Assembly (NCBI GenBank): GCA_023459795.1
Contig: JAEWSP010000018.1
Coordinates: 30,946-94,945 of the forward strand
Origin: Bacillota bacterium
Lineage (GTDB): Bacteria; Bacillota_I; Bacilli_A; RFN20; CAG-288
DNA length: 64,000 nt
Direction: 5' to 3'
The notes under the pieces were generated by a model, which searched no databases, was not told the DNA's origin, and saw nothing but the letters and a program-made list of their open reading frames with translations. Position 1 is the first letter of the stretch, and every line of letters begins with the position of its first letter. The translations under genes and the position numbers were made by a program. Below are positions 4,572 to 14,111 of the stretch, one piece after another.

Positions 4572-4868
4572 CTACTTCGCCTCCGTGGCGTGGGCATAGA
4601 CGACAGAGAGCAGGGAGCTGACATGGTCATCGGCAAGAAGGTAGAACACCTTTGTTCCGTCCTTCCTGGTAGAGACAAGGTGTGCTTTCCTAAGCACCTG
4701 GAGCTGATGGGAGATCAGGGACTGGCTGGCTCCTACTTCTTCTACCAGCTGGGAGACGTTCTTCTCCTGGCCGATCAGGCAATAAAGGATCTTGAATCTT
4801 GTGGAATCGCTGGCGACGCTTAGAAGCGTCTCCATCCGATCCAATGTTTCTTCATCCGGTAGATTCAT
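4572..4868 (-). CDS. cadC: ArsR/SmtB-family metalloregulatory repressor, CadC-like (98 aa)
   Basis: Winged-helix ArsR signature (HQLQVLRKAHLVSTRKDGTKVFY). A 3-nt gap separates it from the P1B ATPase. RBS GGAGG at 4875-4880. Confidence 0.65.
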   Translation of the reverse strand: MNLPDEETLDRMETLLSVASDSTRFKILYCLIGQEKNVSQLVEEVGASQSLISHQLQVLRKAHLVSTRKDGTKVFYLLADDHVSSLLSVVYAHATEAK

Positions 4869-4882
4869 ATATCTGCCTCCTT

Positions 4883-4936
4883 TATGAATGGTGATTCATA
4901 TTTACGCTATTAGTATATATGAATCGTCTTTCATAT
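4883..4936. promoter_or_regulatory. Two palindromic operator-like sites (TATGAAT-N4-ATTCATA at 4883-4900; ATATGAA-N7-TTCATAT at 4917-4936) upstream of cadC
   Basis: Inverted repeats read directly. Half-site ATGAA(T/C) resembles known ArsR/SmtB (CadC/CzrA) 12-2-12 operators. Confidence 0.45.
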
Positions 4937-4950
4937 TTCAAGATATTTCT

Positions 4951-4986
4951 TTCTTTTTTTGAAAAACCCGAGGTATTGCCCTCGGG
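4951..4986 (-). terminator. Rho-independent terminator for the 5013-5510 gene
   Basis: Hairpin CCCGAGG-tattg-CCCTCGGG. On the minus strand it is followed by TTTTTCAAAAAAA. Confidence 0.5.
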
Positions 4987-5012
4987 CCTTTTCTCCTATG
5001 TCTTTTCTGCTT

Positions 5013-5510
5013 CTACTTTCTAAACAATGTCTTCTCGGTGTCCCCGTCCGTCTTGATCCTAGCAAAAGCGAATAGAACCAGGAAGAGAAGAGACAGACCG
5101 ATATAGACATAGCTTCCCCAGGAAGCTTCGATGTTCGTATTGGCCTGGCTTAGGAAGATCGGGAAGGCGACAAGGCATCCTAGATGGGCCACGTAGAAGA
5201 TATAGAGAATGACAGCCATCCTCTTTTCATACTTCAGCTCCCTCTGGAAAAGGAAGGAGAGCGGGAACAGAAGGAGAAGAAGGGCAAGACCGAAGGCAGT
5301 ATAAAGAAGATTCGTGGCAATCGTCAGATTGCCTCCCGCTTCCGAAAAGCGGTAGACAGTAAATCCGGCAAGGAAAGTCTTGCCTTCTTTCGTGAAGGTA
5401 TCCATAAGGGGAGCAAACATCCAAAGCATCAGAAGAACAGAGAACAGAAGGGAGAGGTAAAAAGGCAGTCTTCTTCTTTCCCTGAGATAGCTGAAATCTT
5501 TCTTTTCCAT
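5013..5510 (-). CDS. Hypothetical polytopic membrane protein (165 aa)
   Basis: Four predicted hydrophobic helices and no recognisable domain. Codon usage is consistent with its neighbours. Confidence 0.5.
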   Translation of the reverse strand: MEKKDFSYLRERRRLPFYLSLLFSVLLMLWMFAPLMDTFTKEGKTFLAGFTVYRFSEAGGNLTIATNLLYTAFGLALLLLLFPLSFLFQRELKYEKRMAVILYIFYVAHLGCLVAFPIFLSQANTNIEASWGSYVYIGLSLLFLVLFAFARIKTDGDTEKTLFRK

Positions 5511-5574
5511 ACGGTCTCCTCCTTAGGGTGGTATCTACGATATAATAGTATATCGTAAGAAAGGCCACTATCTT

Positions 5575-6591
5575 ATGGAAGAAAAGCAGAAGAATGACTC
5601 GGTGTTCATTAACCTTTTCAAGGGAGCTCTCTCCGGGCTTCTTTCGATGGTTCCCTTCCTGGACAGCAAAAGAGCAAGAGAAGACGTCTTAGTCACCTAC
5701 AGTTCCCGTACCTGGTCCTATATCCTCGGGTTTGCCATTGCTTTCTTTGTCTTCTCCCTCCTTCCCATCTCCGTCATGGAGAAGAACTTCTCCTATACGG
5801 TAAGGCTATTGGAAGCCGGATTCCTGTTTGGATCTCTGGTCGTGCTTCTTCTTCTGGTCTTTTTGGACAAGAAGGAGAAGATCGATCTTCTCCCATTTCT
5901 TCTCTCCCTCATAGGCGGAATAGGGATTGCTCTTATTTTCTATTTTGCCTTTACTCCGGCAAAGCTCTTAAGAGATGAAGAGCCGATTGCAGGAGCAGGA
6001 TTCTACAGCGTAATTATTGCCGTTGGTGGATTTTTATGCGGATACGCCGGGATCTCCATCGGATCCCTTCTAGCCGTCTCCGGTTCCTATGTAGGGCTTA
6101 TCGGAGTGATGTATCCGGCCGTCAGCTTTACGAACACGGATAAGAAGTCCGGAATCCTGATTATGGGAATCCTGTTCCTGGCTCTGTTCTCGGGACTGTT
6201 CCTCGGCCTTTATGCCGAAGGCAAAGACAGCAGAAAGAAGAACAAGGAAGCGATGCAGATCGGTTTCCTTCTTCCGATGCTTGTTATCCTGATAGTCTAC
6301 TTCGCCAAGAACAAGCCCCAAGCTATGGCTGACTCCGTCATGGTCCGGAAGCTGGTGAATTCCTGCTCCCTTATCTTCTTCTTCCTGATTGCCTTGATCC
6401 TTGGCTTATCTTCCCTTCTTCCATTATGGAAGGAACATCCTGCCTTCAAGATTTGGAAAAGGAAGAAGGATCTGGTAGACGGGCTTCTTGTGAAGAATGT
6501 AAAAGAAGAGAAGAAAGAAGATGAAAAAGAAAATGCCAAGGCCTTGGATGTCGATAAGCTGAAGAAGGCTTTGGAAGAAGAGGATAAATAG
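5575..6591 (+). CDS. Hypothetical membrane protein with Lys/Glu-rich C-terminal tail (338 aa)
   Basis: Multiple TM helices. The C-terminus KNVKEEKKEDEKENAKALDVDKLKKALEEEDK is highly charged. Confidence 0.5.
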   Translation: MEEKQKNDSVFINLFKGALSGLLSMVPFLDSKRAREDVLVTYSSRTWSYILGFAIAFFVFSLLPISVMEKNFSYTVRLLEAGFLFGSLVVLLLLVFLDKKEKIDLLPFLLSLIGGIGIALIFYFAFTPAKLLRDEEPIAGAGFYSVIIAVGGFLCGYAGISIGSLLAVSGSYVGLIGVMYPAVSFTNTDKKSGILIMGILFLALFSGLFLGLYAEGKDSRKKNKEAMQIGFLLPMLVILIVYFAKNKPQAMADSVMVRKLVNSCSLIFFFLIALILGLSSLLPLWKEHPAFKIWKRKKDLVDGLLVKNVKEEKKEDEKENAKALDVDKLKKALEEEDK

Positions 6592-7314
6592 ATGAGGTTA
6601 GATCGGTTTCTGGCAATCCACGGCTTCGGTTCCAGGAAGTCGGCAAAGAAGATGGTCCATAACGGGCATGTCATGGTAAACGGAGAGAAGACGCTCCTTA
6701 ACGACATGCAGATTTCCGGTACCGATAAGATCACGGTCGACGGAAAGGACGTCGAGAACGTTCCTTTCGTCTGCCTGGTCCTGAACAAGCCCCAGAACTA
6801 TGTCTGTTCCATGCTGGACGACCACTACCCGTCCTGCATGAAGCTGATTCCGGACGAATACCAGAAAAGGGTCCGGATGGTGGGAAGGCTTGATGCCGAC
6901 ACGACAGGACTCTTGATCTTCACGGACAACGGAGTCCTCAACTCCCGGCTTGCCAACCCGAAGTTCAAGGTCACCAAGACGTATGCCGTCGAAGTGAACC
7001 ATATCCTGAAGCCGGAGATGGTGGAAGAATTCCAGAAAGGAAATCTCGATATCGGCCAGGGAGACATCGCCGATTCTGCCGTTCTTGTGATCCAGGACGA
7101 ATACCATGCCGAAGTAACCGTCCACGAAGGCAAGTACCACGAGATAAAAAGACTGTTCGGCAAGTTCGGATACGATGTCATCAAACTGAAACGTCTCTCT
7201 CTAGGGCCGGTGAAGCTCGGGGATGTCGAAGAAGGGAAGTTTAGAAAGGTGAGCGAAGAGGAATACGAATCCCTGTTAGAAGCTACCCACCTTATCAAGG
7301 AGGATCAATTATGA
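6592..7314 (+). CDS. rsuA: 16S rRNA pseudouridine synthase, RsuA family (S4 domain + catalytic Asp)
   Basis: N-terminal S4 RNA-binding motif (RLDRFLA...GSRK) and catalytic GRLDADTTGLLIFTDNG motif. Confidence 0.8.
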   Translation: MRLDRFLAIHGFGSRKSAKKMVHNGHVMVNGEKTLLNDMQISGTDKITVDGKDVENVPFVCLVLNKPQNYVCSMLDDHYPSCMKLIPDEYQKRVRMVGRLDADTTGLLIFTDNGVLNSRLANPKFKVTKTYAVEVNHILKPEMVEEFQKGNLDIGQGDIADSAVLVIQDEYHAEVTVHEGKYHEIKRLFGKFGYDVIKLKRLSLGPVKLGDVEEGKFRKVSEEEYESLLEATHLIKEDQL

Positions 7315-7829
7315 ATACTCTCTGCCCGAAATGCGGAAAGGACAATACTTCCACCTTTGTGGATACGAAGCTGAAGACACATGGTTTCTTCTGCGAAGAC
7401 TGCAAGAAGGATTTCGGTGTCGATGACGGCACTGCTTTGAAGAAGAAGGAAGAAGACCTTCTTTCTTTCACATATGACCGGTCCCATGACGGAGAGAAGA
7501 AGACTTTCCGCCTAGTAAGGGATGCAGGCAAGGCAACCCTAACTATCGAAACGGAGAAGGACAAGAAGCGGGACGTATATGAACCTATCGACTTCACTCC
7601 TTATGTCGATTCCTTCCTCTCCCTGCTCTTCGAGAAGCTCTTTGTTTTGGACTGGCCTGAGACAACCAACGGTTTCCTTGTCGGGAAGGATCCCGATACC
7701 TGCACTCTTACCCTCCTATTCAAGGATAAAAGCAGCGTCAGGAAGTCCGGTTTCGTCCGCCTTCCTGTCTACAGCAAGGCACTGGACGAGATCCTCGATT
7801 CCCTTCTCTCCAGCACGAAGGAGGAGTAG
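7311..7829 (+). CDS. Hypothetical protein with N-terminal C4 zinc ribbon (172 aa)
   Basis: CPKCG...CEDCKK motif. Its start overlaps the rsuA stop (ATGA), which suggests translational coupling. Confidence 0.5.
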   Translation: MNTLCPKCGKDNTSTFVDTKLKTHGFFCEDCKKDFGVDDGTALKKKEEDLLSFTYDRSHDGEKKTFRLVRDAGKATLTIETEKDKKRDVYEPIDFTPYVDSFLSLLFEKLFVLDWPETTNGFLVGKDPDTCTLTLLFKDKSSVRKSGFVRLPVYSKALDEILDSLLSSTKEE

Positions 7830-8207
7830 ATGAGAACCGACTTCACGAAGATCTCCTTCTGGAAAAGGAATCCGGACAATGTTGCGGATATCCTGAGGCT
7901 GGAGATCGAATGCCTCGTCGACAAGACTTACCTTCTGAACGTAAACGGAAAAGACCGTTCCCTTCCCAAAGAGGAAGGAGACAAGCTTATAGAAGGTCTT
8001 ATTGCTCTGAAGCTGGGCGAGACGAAGAAGGAAGAGAAAGCCTACCTATACGAAGACAGGCCTCAGGACTACCGGATCAAGTTCTTCCTGGTCTTCTCCT
8101 ATCCGGAAGCCACTTATCTAGCCGTAAAGGGAATCGATCCCTTCGGCCAGAAGAACTACAAGGAGATCCAGGCTCTCTTTGCTCCGCTGTTCAAGAAACA
8201 AGACTGA
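7830..8207 (+). CDS. Hypothetical protein (125 aa)
   Basis: Its ATG abuts the TAG of the previous gene. No recognisable domain. Confidence 0.45.
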   Translation: MRTDFTKISFWKRNPDNVADILRLEIECLVDKTYLLNVNGKDRSLPKEEGDKLIEGLIALKLGETKKEEKAYLYEDRPQDYRIKFFLVFSYPEATYLAVKGIDPFGQKNYKEIQALFAPLFKKQD

Positions 8208-8209
8208 AA

Positions 8210-8240
8210 GAGGAAGCCCCCAGAAGGCTTCCTCTTTTTC
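8210..8240 (+). terminator. Rho-independent terminator
   Basis: Hairpin GAGGAAGCC-cccaga-a-GGCTTCCTC followed by TTTTTC. A second hairpin CCCGG...CTTGATT-caac-AATCAAG...CCGGG lies at 8243-8285. Confidence 0.55.
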
Positions 8241-8344
8241 AAGGCATTAAAAAGAGCCCGGTTACTTGATTCAACAATCAAGGCCGGGCCCTAACGTATC
8301 TGACCCATGGGTTGTTCCATATCTTGCCGCCCCTTCACCGCGGT

Positions 8345-8565
8345 TTCCGAATCATCCCGGATCGTATCGCGGTCCCTTCTCGTATCGCCATATTTGCTCA
8401 TATCTCAGTCCCGAACCGTATCGCCGTATCTTAACGAATCGCCTTACCTGATCGTACCTCCGTATCGAATCATATCGCCGTACCTTATCGAATCGCCTCG
8501 TAGAATCTAACCGTATCGCCATCCCTTAACGTATCGCCGTATCGAATCGTACCTCCGTCTCTGCT
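8345..8565. repeat. Irregular array of short CG-containing motifs (CGTATCG(CC), CGAATCG(CC), CGTACCT; at least 14 copies) inside an 820-bp non-coding CpG-rich stretch
   Basis: Motifs were counted directly in the sequence. No long ORF with protein-like translation spans this region (track ORFs read SPYL-type repeats). Further partial repeats CTCGTCTTGCCTC (x2) and CTCGAAGCGAC (x2) occur at 8676-8950. Confidence 0.5.
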
Positions 8566-9059
8566 CATATCGTTGACTCGGCTAGTAACGGAACGTTGTC
8601 TCAAACCGTTTCGTACCGCCGTACCTTCTTGGCGAAACACCTTGCGTCCCGGACTTCGAGAAACTAAGACTCACTCATTGACTCGTCTTGCCTCGAAGCG
8701 ACGTAGCTCGTTCCGTCTTTCCGGTTCCACTCATCCGGAACCTTTCCGTATCTAAACAGTGCACTGGCTACTCGAAGACTGACCGGCTCGTCTTGCCTCC
8801 CGGATTTGTATCTCTGACCTTCTTCCCGTATTGCAGAGAAGACCTAAACCAGAGTGGGGATAACGCCTTTAGTCCCAGGAGAGCCGAAACAGCTAGCCTT
8901 CCCTTACCTGCTCGGATGGGTACCCGACGAAATAACATAGTCTCGAAGCGACTATATCATGGCCAATGATATACATATTGAGAGTATCCGACAAAAGGAG
9001 GAGATTATTGCATCCCTTCTAGAAATTTATAGATATTTGACTTCTAATAGGTTAACGAA

Positions 9060-9326
9060 TTAGAAGCTGTACTCAGAAGCTAACTTCTTGAAGCCGGCAA
9101 CTGCCAGATCTTCATCTGCTCCGTCGCAAACAATCTTGAGGGATTCCCCCTGGCTGATCGTCGAGATGGCGAAGACATTCATGATAGACTTGAGATCGCA
9201 CTCGTCACCATTCTCAAGAACCATCTTGATGTTGCACTTATGATGATTTGCTTCCTCTACCAGCTCTGCACTAGAGCGAGAAGAGAGACCATTCATGGCA
9301 TTCACTTTGATTTCGAATGTTTTCAT
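9060..9326 (-). CDS. HPr-family phosphocarrier paralog lacking the active-site His15 (Crh-like), 88 aa
   Basis: It aligns to HPr/Crh. GLSSRSSA occupies the place of GIHARPA, so His15 is replaced by Ser while Arg17 is kept. The KSIMNV segment retains the regulatory Ser46 context. No SD precedes the ATG. Confidence 0.75.
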   Translation of the reverse strand: MKTFEIKVNAMNGLSSRSSAELVEEANHHKCNIKMVLENGDECDLKSIMNVFAISTISQGESLKIVCDGADEDLAVAGFKKLASEYSF

Positions 9327-9350
9327 AGGTTTATATCTTTCTGCACCTTT

Positions 9351-9379
9351 ATTATAGAGAATTTGGTAAGCGTTTACAA
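9351..9379 (-). promoter_or_regulatory. Sigma70-type promoter for the HPr-like gene (-35 TTGTAA, 17 nt, -10 TATAAT on minus strand)
   Basis: Hexamers with ideal spacing. The predicted leader of about 18 nt has no SD. Confidence 0.4.
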
Positions 9380-9763
9380 GTGAGGCGGGAAATTTAAGGT
9401 TTTTCTGTGCGTCTTAGCGTAACTGAAGGGTGGCTAACTTCAGGAAGCGCCCATCCAGTCTTTTGGCTTAGAGAGCTCTTCTTAGCTATTATAAGCTATT
9501 AATTACTTTTTGCGGTCATTTCTTTTTCTTTTTTTGCGTATTCTGACATTTTCTTTTTCTTATCGGTTCGTTCCTCATCTTTCCCCTTTCATTCTTAGGT
9601 CGTTTCTGCATGCCTTTTATATCCCCTTTCTTCTTCTTTTTGGTTGCAAATCCAATCAAAAGCCGTCATTTTCGCTGCTTCTATTTTCGTAGCGGATTAA
9701 TGCCTGTCGAAACAAAGCCTAAAGAGTTATCATATAAAGGCAAACGAAGGAGCTATTCCCCCA

Positions 9764-11119: not shown

Positions 11120-12830
11120 ATGAACAAGAACAACGGGCGCCGTCTAATGGCCTTCCTCAACGACCATCTTGCCAAAGTAGGGAAAAAGTATCTCTCCGTC
11201 TTCGATGCCTTCGGAAAAGAGCCGGAGAGAATCAGCGAGAAGACGCTTCTTTCCATCGTGAAGAAGAACAGGAATACGGAATTCGGAAGGAAGCACCATC
11301 TCGACCAGATCCATTCCCTTTCCGACTACCGGAAGGAAGTCCCTGTTTCGGACTACGAAGACTATAGGGAAGCAATCCTTAGGATGCAGGACGGGGGAAA
11401 GGATGTCCTCTTCCAGGGAAAACCGGTCTACTATACGGATACTTCCGGATCGACGGGGAAGAGCAAACGGATTCCTATCTCTGCTACCCAGCAGAAGGCA
11501 ATGAAGAAGAAGAAAGGAAATCCTCAGATCATCCCCTATCTGGAGAAGAAGAACGGATGCTATGACAGGAACCACCGGAAGATCCTCGCCCTGATGGCGA
11601 ATGCCGACATCACCTATACGAAGGACCAAACCCCGATCGGGGATGTCGTCTCCCTGATGCTTTCCAAGGTCAGCGGATTGATGGGGCTCTTCTTTACCAC
11701 CCTTTGGCAAGCCTCACCTCGAACGAGATCCATGACCGCCTCTATGTCCACCTTCTCTTCGCGCTTCCGGAAACGGACATCTATCTCATCATGAGTGCCT
11801 ATCTCAGCGAAACCTGCGGAATGGTGAACTATCTCTTCCAGAACCAGGAACTCTGCTCCATGATCTTGCAGAAGGGAAAATATCGGACTGCGTAAAGCTT
11901 TCCCCCGCCCTAAAGAAGGAACTTGAAAAGAAGCTTGTCCCGCACCCGGAAAGGGCTGAGGAACTAAAAGAAATCCTGGCTTCCGGAAGAGACGGGATCC
12001 TGACCAGGATCTGGCCTAGCCTCACCGTCGTAAGCGGGGTCGGCAGTACAGAGAACAGGCTGCGCCCGTATACGCTTCTTGTAAAAAGGTATCTAGGAAG
12101 CAAAGGACATATTTATTATGCCGCCTATAATTCCTCGGAATCCTTGATGGGGCTGGCAACGGACTACGACACCTTCCTCTATGCACCGGTCCTGGATATG
12201 GCTTATCTGGAATTCCTTCCCCTCGATGAGAAGGAACAGCCGATCCCGGGGAAGATCCTTTCCGTATCCGAGCTTACGGACGGGGCAAAGTACGAGACTG
12301 TCCTGACCAGCCTCTCCGGTCTCTATCGTTATAGGATGGCAGACATCGTCAAGGTCAGCGGACGGAAAGGAAGGCTTCCTCTATTCGAAATCCTAGGACG
12401 GAACAAGGTCCTCCTCGATGTCATGGGAGAGAAATGCACCTTCCATCAGGCAGATGACGCGATTGCCCTCCTAGGAGAAAAGATCGGGGAGAAGGAACAT
12501 CCCATCTATGCCTACTGTGCCACGGAAGGGAATAAGGAAAACCGGTATACCTTCTTCCTGGAAATCAAGGATTCCTCTTCCCTGGATCCGAAGAAGACTT
12601 CTCTCCTTCTGAAGGATTCCCTAGCCCTTGCTTCCCCGGATATCCGGTATGCTTTCGAGGAGGAAGGGCTCCTTCCTCCCGAAGTCTTCTTCGTGAAGGA
12701 AGGGACTTTCCAAAAATACCTCCACAATGAGAACCGGGAAGGAGAAGAAACAAAGCACTCCATCAAGGAGATCAAAGTCCTGAGGACCGAAGAGCAGAAG
12801 AAGTTCTTCAGGGATCATATCGAAGGATAG
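11120..12830 (+). pseudogene. GH3-family (acyl-acid amido synthetase / auxin-responsive GH3-like) gene disrupted by two frameshifts
   Basis: The N-terminal part in frame 2 carries YYTDTSGSTGKSKRIP. The middle part is in frame 1 (SNEIHDRLYVHLLFAL). The C-terminal part in frame 0 carries IWPSL..VVSGV, YYAAYNSSES and GLYRYRMADIV. Shifts map to a G4 run (11683-11686) and an A4 run (11877-11880). Confidence 0.6.
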
Positions 12831-13929: not shown

Positions 13930-14111
13930 GTTTTTTCCTCTGTTAAAAGACCATTATAGCAAAGAAGAGCAACGGAAATGAGGTTGCCCTTGCCCCTCCC
14001 TTTTTGTATAATAGATTCACCATCGCGGTGTATACCGTCGAACTTGGTCAGGACCGGAAGGTAGCAGCCATAAGATCGGTGTCCACGTGCGGTGGCTTTT
14101 TTATTAAAAGA

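Follow-up and report, generated by a model that had tools for sequence, protein, structure and literature searches.

A conserved minus-strand element behind a Crh-like gene of uncultured Bacilli: a candidate non-coding RNA with arrays of short purine-rich motifs

What occupies the largest intergenic gap of a stretch of compact bacterial genome if it codes for no protein? The question is raised by a 64,000-nucleotide segment of an uncultured Bacillota bacterium (contig JAEWSP010000018.1 of assembly GCA_023459795.1, positions 30,946 to 94,945; hereafter the window), in which 852 bp of non-coding DNA (8208–9059) separate a plus-strand gene (7830–8207) from a convergent minus-strand gene of the HPr family (9060–9326). 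Judged from sequence, we propose that the gap encodes a non-coding RNA of ~730 nt on the minus strand (8974 to 8249), which would be transcribed together with this Crh-like gene as the 3′ part of its unit and serve as a multivalent protein-binding platform. We hold this reading as a whole with moderate confidence, and its parts differ in strength. The element is conserved and lies outside every catalogued RNA family; its assignment as a transcribed minus-strand part of the HPr-like unit appears well supported; and from the pattern of its motifs we infer that it functions as a protein-binding array.

The gap exceeds every other in the window, the runner-up measuring 437 bp. The initial annotation rightly described it as long and free of protein-like open reading frames (ORFs), with convergent genes on either side: stop codons interrupt all six frames, the ORFs that occur are short and unconserved (51–93 amino acids), and gene calling placed no gene within it on any of ten contigs from strains of this organism. 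A pseudogenised or unrecognised coding sequence, such as that of a repeat protein, might draw on these ORFs and on repeat periods of 18 and 54 nt, both multiples of three. However, no gene was called in any contig, no ORF is conserved between species, the repeats of relatives have periods of 5, 10 and 25 nt, and a deletion found in one strain spans 113 nt, which is not a multiple of three. We therefore give a coding origin next to no credence; the recent pseudogene that had been considered at the outset left no sign and no conserved frame. The base composition sets the gap apart as well. As previously noted, CpG is elevated, with an observed-to-expected ratio of 1.47 in the region and 2.37 in its motif array against 0.92 in the window, and the former two values are window maxima. 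The GC skew of the gap is strongly negative on the plus strand, so that the minus strand is G-rich and C-poor (58% purine).

Read on the plus strand, the region contains seven copies of CGTATCG (8363, 8381, 8417, 8461, 8512, 8530 and 8538; 13 in the whole window), four of CGTATCGCC, which are all the copies in the window, and three of GAATCG. At least 14 short CG-centred motifs had been reported at 8345–8565; with the same relaxed variants we counted 15 in this interval and 18 in the region. Tandem Repeats Finder (TRF) detected a period of 18 nt, with 7.8 copies at 63% match, and one of 54 nt, with 2.6 copies at 76%. The two short duplicated blocks described earlier are also present, CTCGTCTTGCCTC at 8682 and 8787 and CTCGAAGCGAC at 8692 and 8942, and neither is found elsewhere in the window. 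With units of 6–9 nt within 18-nt periods, the region is indeed not a CRISPR (clustered regularly interspaced short palindromic repeats) array, the direct repeats of which measure 23–50 nt and alternate with unique spacers of similar length.

All copies of CGTATCG and TATCG in the region lie on the plus strand and none on the other, and in the sense, minus-strand reading the motifs become GAUACG, GGUACG and GAUAUG. Dense, short CG-centred motifs in a non-coding gap could represent a DNA-level protein-binding array, such as a nucleoid-protein, partition or iteron site. This explanation has very little probability in our view: the strand asymmetry of the motifs is complete, neither the 5-nt nor the 18-nt period fits the DNA helical repeat of ~10.5 bp, covariation with G·U wobbles and a terminal U-run speak for RNA, and no similarity to plasmids or phages was found. 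The protein-binding array suggested by the initial annotation survives, but at the level of RNA and on the minus strand, the motifs having been read there on the antisense strand.

The element comprises 726 nt between the HPr-like stop codon and a terminator with a covarying stem. Two consecutive hairpins had been reported to open the region. Both exist, though they form no special structure: each serves one of the two convergent transcription units as its intrinsic terminator. One of them (8207–8237, plus strand) lies outside the element and belongs to the convergent gene 7830–8207; its 12-bp perfect stem overlaps the stop codon and is followed by a T-run. The other is the terminator of the element (8249–8292, minus strand), a hairpin at 8253–8292 with a U-run at 8249–8253, which has the features of a rho-independent terminator and folds in two tiers, with an outer stem GGGCCCGG/CCGGGCUC, an apical part CUUGA-UUGUUGAA-UCAAG (AAUUGUUGAAUU) and a GUAAC bulge. 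An alignment of its 15 pairs in 10 species has 94.7% of cells paired and eight pairs with compensatory changes, values that none of 500 shuffles reached.

At the opposite end, a 5′ hairpin UAUAUCAU-UGGCC-AUGAUAUA (8953–8973, minus strand), followed by GUCG, is nearly invariant between species, and a 28-mer (ATGTATATCATTGGCCATGATATAGTCG) is identical between the window and the relative UBA7642. Among 16 aligned sequences, two of the seven pairs of this hairpin show compensatory changes, and three sequences have U·G wobbles. As the wobble pairs of both hairpins would turn into A·C mismatches on the opposite strand, they favour transcription of the minus strand, and the position of the U-run indicates that a minus-strand transcript would end there. 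Dimerisation by kissing loops through the self-complementary GGCC loop (GCGC in locus L122; homologous loci carry L numbers) was considered and rejected, the loop of L125 being GGACC.

How widely is the element distributed? In the closest species in the genome collection, Bacillales bacterium UBA7642 (TyrRS 72% and HPr 70% identical), the HPr gene is likewise followed by non-coding DNA, which contains the identical 28-mer. A metagenome scan with a 19-nt core returned 21 loci, which comprised 11 true homologues, two of them from the window species or UBA7642, and 10 chance matches in coding DNA. Further loci were reached through HPr homologues of 59–80% identity, and the two routes found members independently. 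Altogether, 16 species-level members were identified in uncultured Bacilli, 15 of full length (188–883 nt) and one truncated where its contig ends, and all follow the HPr-like stop codon directly on the same strand. An element with conserved ends in 16 species lends no support to the decayed repeat that had been offered as one option. L124, whose HPr is 59% identical, has no element, and its HPr-like stop codon is followed by a 61-nt spacer with a terminator; as this terminator comes directly after the stop codon, the element of other species sits between the ORF and its terminator. No copy was found at 79 TyrRS-anchored loci of other lineages.

The element also has no counterpart among catalogued RNA families. 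At the gathering threshold, Rfam 15 reported in the window only tRNA and signal recognition particle (SRP) RNA, both elsewhere; searches of the region at E values up to 10 gave only spurious matches on terminator hairpins, and those of ten homologous loci at E values up to 0.5 gave no match to the element except weak ones to ctRNA-like (counter-transcribed RNA) families on the terminator. The earlier statement that the region is not RNase P RNA, transfer-messenger RNA or SRP RNA is borne out, and no known RNA family emerged from the region or its homologues. Collections of phages, plasmids and viral contigs held no match to the element, and a mobile-element origin was rejected on this ground. 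No earlier description was found in two motif catalogues or by word searches of a literature collection of incomplete coverage, a result that does not prove novelty.

The gene preceding the element (9060–9326, minus strand) encodes an 88-residue protein of the HPr family (Pfam PF00381, 2.7e-15; NCBIfam HPr family). Its sequence reads GLSSRSS in place of GIHARPA and lacks His15, with the Ser46 motif DLKSIM retained. The same holds for 75 HPr-like homologues, which have G-L/F-T/N-S/G-R-S at the His15 site and no histidine, and DLKSIM is found in 76 of 79 sequences. The HPr-like proteins next to the element all lack His15 (GLT/SSRSS). In view of the established roles of HPr and Crh, proteins that lack His15 and keep Ser46 would be Crh-like co-effectors of CcpA rather than carriers of the phosphotransferase system; the window protein is probably a Crh-like paralogue with a regulatory role only.

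Upstream of the gene lies the probable promoter of the whole unit (9351–9379, minus strand), TTGTAA and TATAAT separated by 17 nt, which scored 10 of 12 in a promoter scan. Its −35 hexamer is overlapped by a box, TGTAAACGCTTACC (9365–9378, minus strand), which by sequence match and position qualifies as a putative catabolite-responsive element (cre), the operator of CcpA. It has one mismatch to TGWAANCGNTNWCA in the window and none in nine relatives (L113, L115, L117, L119–L123 and L125), and in all these species the pattern TGTAA[A/T]CGCTT[A/T]C[A/C] overlaps the −35 of TTGTAA-17-TATAAT. The combination of cre and promoter is conserved in 10 of 11 species; the cre is degenerate in L124, the only species without the RNA element. 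The 85-nt spacer between stop codon and 5′ hairpin (8975–9059, minus strand) has a CUCCUCC pyrimidine block and neither a conserved promoter nor a terminator. The corresponding spacers of homologues (~90 nt) share AGUCG/CCUCC motifs, and no promoter, −35/−10 pair or terminator is common to the species. We infer from this arrangement that the element is probably co-transcribed with the HPr-like gene and subject to catabolite control.

Alternatively, the gap might hold an independently transcribed, large structured RNA, a ribonucleoprotein component or ribozyme resembling OLE or ROOL, with a promoter of its own just 5′ of the hairpin and functionally unrelated to the HPr-like gene. The size of ~730 nt and the conservation of the 5′ hairpin and the 3′ domain agree with it, as does the fact that a 5′-terminal hairpin is typical of stable Firmicute RNAs; L096 moreover has a plausible promoter, TTGACC-17-TAAATG, immediately upstream of the hairpin. 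Nevertheless, no promoter is common to the species, and a candidate within or just 5′ of the hairpin in the window (TTGTCG-17-TATCAT) was rejected, its −35 not being conserved in other species. The 726-nt RNA and its shuffled versions have the same folding energy (z = 0), conservation is lacking in the interior, the C-poor composition leaves G few partners, and Rfam holds no match. We consider this explanation improbable. Of the structured non-coding RNA proposed by the initial annotation, the non-coding RNA remains, on the minus strand, and the global structure gives way to two structured ends and a few local hairpins.

Not even the closest five species allow an alignment of the interior, and yet the same class of short motif recurs in it despite this turnover. 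The sense strand of the members is 51–61% purine and 12–23% C. Family-wide, GAUACG occurs 42 times against 3.9 expected (10 against 0.59 in the window RNA), and GGGAAG, CGGGAC and GGGAUG are enriched as well. These hexamers belong to the class G-R-K-A-H-G (in the one-letter code for ambiguous bases), which is three to six times more frequent than in dinucleotide shuffles in every member, that is, in all 15 full-length species, with 29 against 5.8 ± 2.2 in the window; the members carry 20–40 such hexamers in the interior. The distances between motif starts are most often 5 nt (104 times), followed by 10, 15, 20 and 25 nt. Moreover, G, A and C in all long members show autocorrelation peaks at a lag of 5 nt and at each of its multiples up to 30, and these peaks are absent from a coding control. 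Consecutive in-register pentamers number 24 in L096 and 30 in L107, extending up to 150 nt, chains of G[AG][GU] with 2-nt spacers reach 12–13 units in L107 and L096, and the tandem-repeat periods of relatives are 5, 10, 15, 25 and 45 nt.

In the window, the motif array proper (8347–8571, minus strand) has ~20 hexamers of the class, including GAUACG, GGUACG, GAUAUG and GGGAUG. These alternate 8 and 10 nt apart and thereby form an 18-nt unit, AUUAGAUACGGCGAUACG, upon which the 54-nt higher-order repeat is superimposed. Between the array and the 5′ hairpin extends a variable body (8572–8952, minus strand) with local hairpins and the internal duplications 8682/8787 and 8692/8942. One of these hairpins, GGUUCC-GGAUGAGU-GGAACC (8723–8742, minus strand), occurs in L103 too. 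Towards the terminator, a small hairpin AACCCAUGGGUC (8302–8313, minus strand) is replaced by GACCAUGGUC or GACCUAGGUC at the equivalent place in relatives; by eye, the A-to-C and U-to-G changes between species are compensatory. In most relatives, a CGGGA...CCCUUUC block is conserved ~45–65 nt past the 5′ hairpin, and it could pair with the numerous AAGGG/GAAGGG motifs; the block resembles the 3′ end of Bacillus 16S rRNA, which is rich in pyrimidines. The window has a palindrome, CGGGUACCCA (8917–8926), in its place.

Could such an interior be mere filler? The element may be a functionless, fast-evolving repeat expansion in the 3′ untranslated region (UTR) of the HPr-like gene, in which only the ends matter, as an mRNA-stabilising hairpin and a terminator, and the rest is a product of slippage. 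That the interior is unalignable between species, that its length ranges from 188 to 883 nt with complete absence in L124, that the window array arose by recent 18- and 54-nt duplications, and that the whole RNA folds no better than shuffles are all in keeping with this view. So is strain L006 (3379–4117), which carries a clean 113-nt deletion corresponding to window 8417–8529 between two CGTATCGCCGTATC repeats; this part of the array was lost by recombination between the repeats, and the copy number of the array is accordingly polymorphic in nature. Three observations argue in the other direction. The same hexamer class is enriched in all species, as described above. The arrays of 24–30 units keep G in register although the units differ: in L107, 22 of the 30 units are distinct, with G in register in 29 of 30, which suggests selection on the register rather than a young microsatellite. 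Finally, the element has changed as little between strains as the HPr gene (1.3% and 1.1% between strain L003 and the window, against 5.3% for upstream genes). On balance we regard the filler explanation as unlikely, although worth keeping in mind.

The contrast in divergence extends over 4830–9326 of the window compared with L003 and L007, with upstream protein genes 5.3% divergent and the element and HPr gene far closer; the difference may result either from constraint or from recombination with a boundary near 7830.

Returning to a multivalent protein-binding RNA, we propose that transcription would start at the cre-containing promoter that is conserved 5′ of the HPr-like gene, such that the RNA level would follow carbon-catabolite control by CcpA. 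The RNA would act either as a long 3′ UTR or, once processed at the 5′ hairpin, as a stable RNA. Its mostly single-stranded motif array would bind many copies of one protein, which may be titrated or assembled on it. A 5-nt register held over 100–150 nt agrees with an oligomer or filament that places one subunit on each pentamer; the binder would have a footprint of ~5 nt per subunit, in a geometry like that of TRAP on GAGNN repeats. To our knowledge, the TRAP binding site is the sole RNA element with a strict 5-nt register.

Several points weigh against this proposal, some of them arising from the window itself. Here the lag-5 autocorrelation is 1.42, the longest in-register chain has four units, no better than in shuffles, and the dominant period is 18 nt; the array runs at 8/10/18 nt instead of the strict 5-nt register and is a derived variant. 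Motif bases are less paired than other bases in nine of nine RNAs, and the difference is small (pairing probability 0.50–0.61 for motif versus 0.62–0.69 for non-motif bases). The length of 0 to 883 nt between species, together with the 113 nt lost in one strain, implies that much of the array is dispensable. No candidate binding protein was found among the loci of the window and its relatives: a tblastn search of the window and all retrieved loci for CsrA, TRAP (mtrB), Hfq and HutP, with query sequences written out by hand, returned none, and the small ORFs of the window yielded no RNA-binding domain.

Several specific partners and activities were rejected. The 125- and 172-residue neighbours are convergent, have no domain matches, and are present without the element (L124) as well as where HPr gene and element are not adjacent (L091). 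A CsrA sponge would be expected to have about one GGA or A(N)GGA per 15–25 nt, more than its composition predicts; it is not supported by the 18 GGA in 726 nt, compared with 23.6 ± 3.5 in dinucleotide shuffles, or by 8 ANGGA compared with 6.3, and no enrichment of GGA or ANGGA was seen in 15 members (z at most 0.9, mostly negative). A G-quadruplex was considered for the G3 runs of L103, which the window array lacks. Towards the 3′ end, L096 and L107 share a short ORF (UUG plus 12 codons), in which most changes are non-synonymous.

A further candidate appears downstream. In 6 of 16 species, an orphan gene of ~170 amino acids follows the terminator on the same strand, 20–45 nt past the U-run, and the element might accordingly be a cis-acting attenuator or leader for read-through into this gene, of the TRAP type or like a type III toxin–antitoxin system made up of repeat RNA, terminator and ~170-residue ORF. 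The element should then be lost wherever the gene is absent, an expectation that is contradicted; the gene is absent from the window and thus cannot explain the element there. A type III antitoxin was rejected also on account of its repeats, which are 18 and 54 nt long at 63–76% identity in the window and not ~34–45 nt and near-identical, and no same-strand ORF lies downstream in the window, where a toxin gene of the ToxN, AbiQ, CptN or TenpN type would be expected. Among 1.84 billion proteins, the family of the ~170-residue protein counts only 14 representatives, and neither PADLOC nor Pfam gave a match to it. The first structural model was unusable (predicted local distance difference test, pLDDT, 48), and the second, which was good (pLDDT 90), predicts an MM3350-like fold, the function of which is not known. 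As this fold has no RNA-binding precedent, the protein was rejected as a partner, and we judge the attenuator explanation very improbable.

The surroundings of the unit yielded several further observations. The 437 nt upstream of tyrS (9327–9763) have no T-box or other Rfam match at the gathering threshold; tyrS is commonly T-box-controlled in Firmicutes. Strains L003 and L007 carry an extra gene of 326 amino acids without Pfam match (4858–5838) between the HPr-like gene and tyrS, which the window lacks (~9330–9760). A GH3-family gene seems truncated in the window (11120–11794 and 12144–12830), where a 224-residue ORF has the N-terminal GH3 domain only; the product measures 560–570 residues in L004, L005 and L010 and 127–417 in other strains, and these differences may be strain-variable frameshifts or assembly errors. 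In addition, the SRP RNA of the window (14017–14101) is of the small (4.5S) type, and a 338-residue membrane protein (5575–6591) weakly matches a Mycoplasma MSC_0624-family model. Together with neighbouring metagenome-assembled genomes labelled ‘Bacilli/Tenericutes’, these features hint at a mollicute-like Bacilli lineage that is missing from the GTDB representative set searched.

What would the element mean for such a lineage? It may, as a tentative possibility, be the first of an undescribed class of bacterial ribonucleoprotein RNAs, catabolite-controlled and several hundred nucleotides long, in which extended arrays of G-R-K-A-H pentamers would sequester an oligomeric or filament-forming RNA-binding protein or serve as template for its assembly, with one subunit per 5 nt. 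If true, this class would link carbon signalling through HPr/Crh and CcpA to post-transcriptional control in mollicute-like Bacilli. Few protein-titrating RNAs are known in Firmicutes, and we know of none tied to the HPr/Crh–CcpA catabolite system. A register kept over 100–150 nt despite sequence turnover suggests that an RNA-binding protein of defined footprint has so far gone unrecognised, and the element RNA offers a concrete bait for it. What looked like the largest “empty” gap of a compact uncultured genome would be conserved and functional, although neither gene callers nor Rfam detect it.

Comparison with known systems places the element near several of them. Like OLE, ROOL, GOLLD and raiA RNAs, it has 500–900 nt, is limited to Firmicutes or uncultured lineages and came to light as an oversized intergenic gap; unlike these RNAs with their extensive conserved and covarying structure, it covaries at its two ends only. 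With the type III antitoxins ToxI, CptI and TenpI it shares the succession of repeat RNA, terminator and ~170-residue ORF in six species. It differs from them in its degenerate repeats of 5–18 nt, in the absence of the ORF from the window, in an ORF product that is predicted to be MM3350-like and not ToxN-like, without PADLOC match, and in a conserved chromosomal synteny rather than a mobile element. Like 3′-UTR-derived regulatory RNAs, it is found after the stop codon of a gene and ahead of the terminator of that gene, with no evident promoter of its own, although these RNAs typically measure 50–200 nt, far less than the element, and use a base-pairing seed rather than motif arrays.

The sponge RNAs CsrB, CsrC and RsmX/Y/Z offer a functional parallel: they too are non-coding RNAs that end in an intrinsic terminator and carry many copies of a short purine-rich motif, with copy number and interior varying by species between conserved ends, and an output that for the element is plausibly tied to carbon status. 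Compared to them, the present RNA is twice the size, is linked to an upstream ORF, and has its motifs outside hairpin loops, without GGA/ANGGA enrichment or Rfam match. The TRAP (MtrB) sites of the Bacillus trp, trpG and trpP leaders consist of (G/U)AG triplets with 2–3-nt spacers. Chains that obey this rule stop at 3 triplets in the window and do not exceed 5 across the family, lengths that shuffles also produce, compared to 9–11 in real sites, and a genuine TRAP site was rejected. The conserved positions of the element are G1 and A4 (G-R-K-A-H) and not N-A-G, the window using GAU and GGU; its arrays are two to three times longer than one TRAP ring requires and lie in a 3′ region rather than a leader, and no mtrB was found in the DNA searched. 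Nevertheless, GAGAUGAGAUGAGAC in L096 matches the pattern of GAG with 2-nt spacers used for TRAP–RNA crystal structures, and in relatives with long arrays the element resembles TRAP sites in its probably single-stranded purine triplets every 5 nt, which would suit a wrapping oligomer with one subunit per unit.
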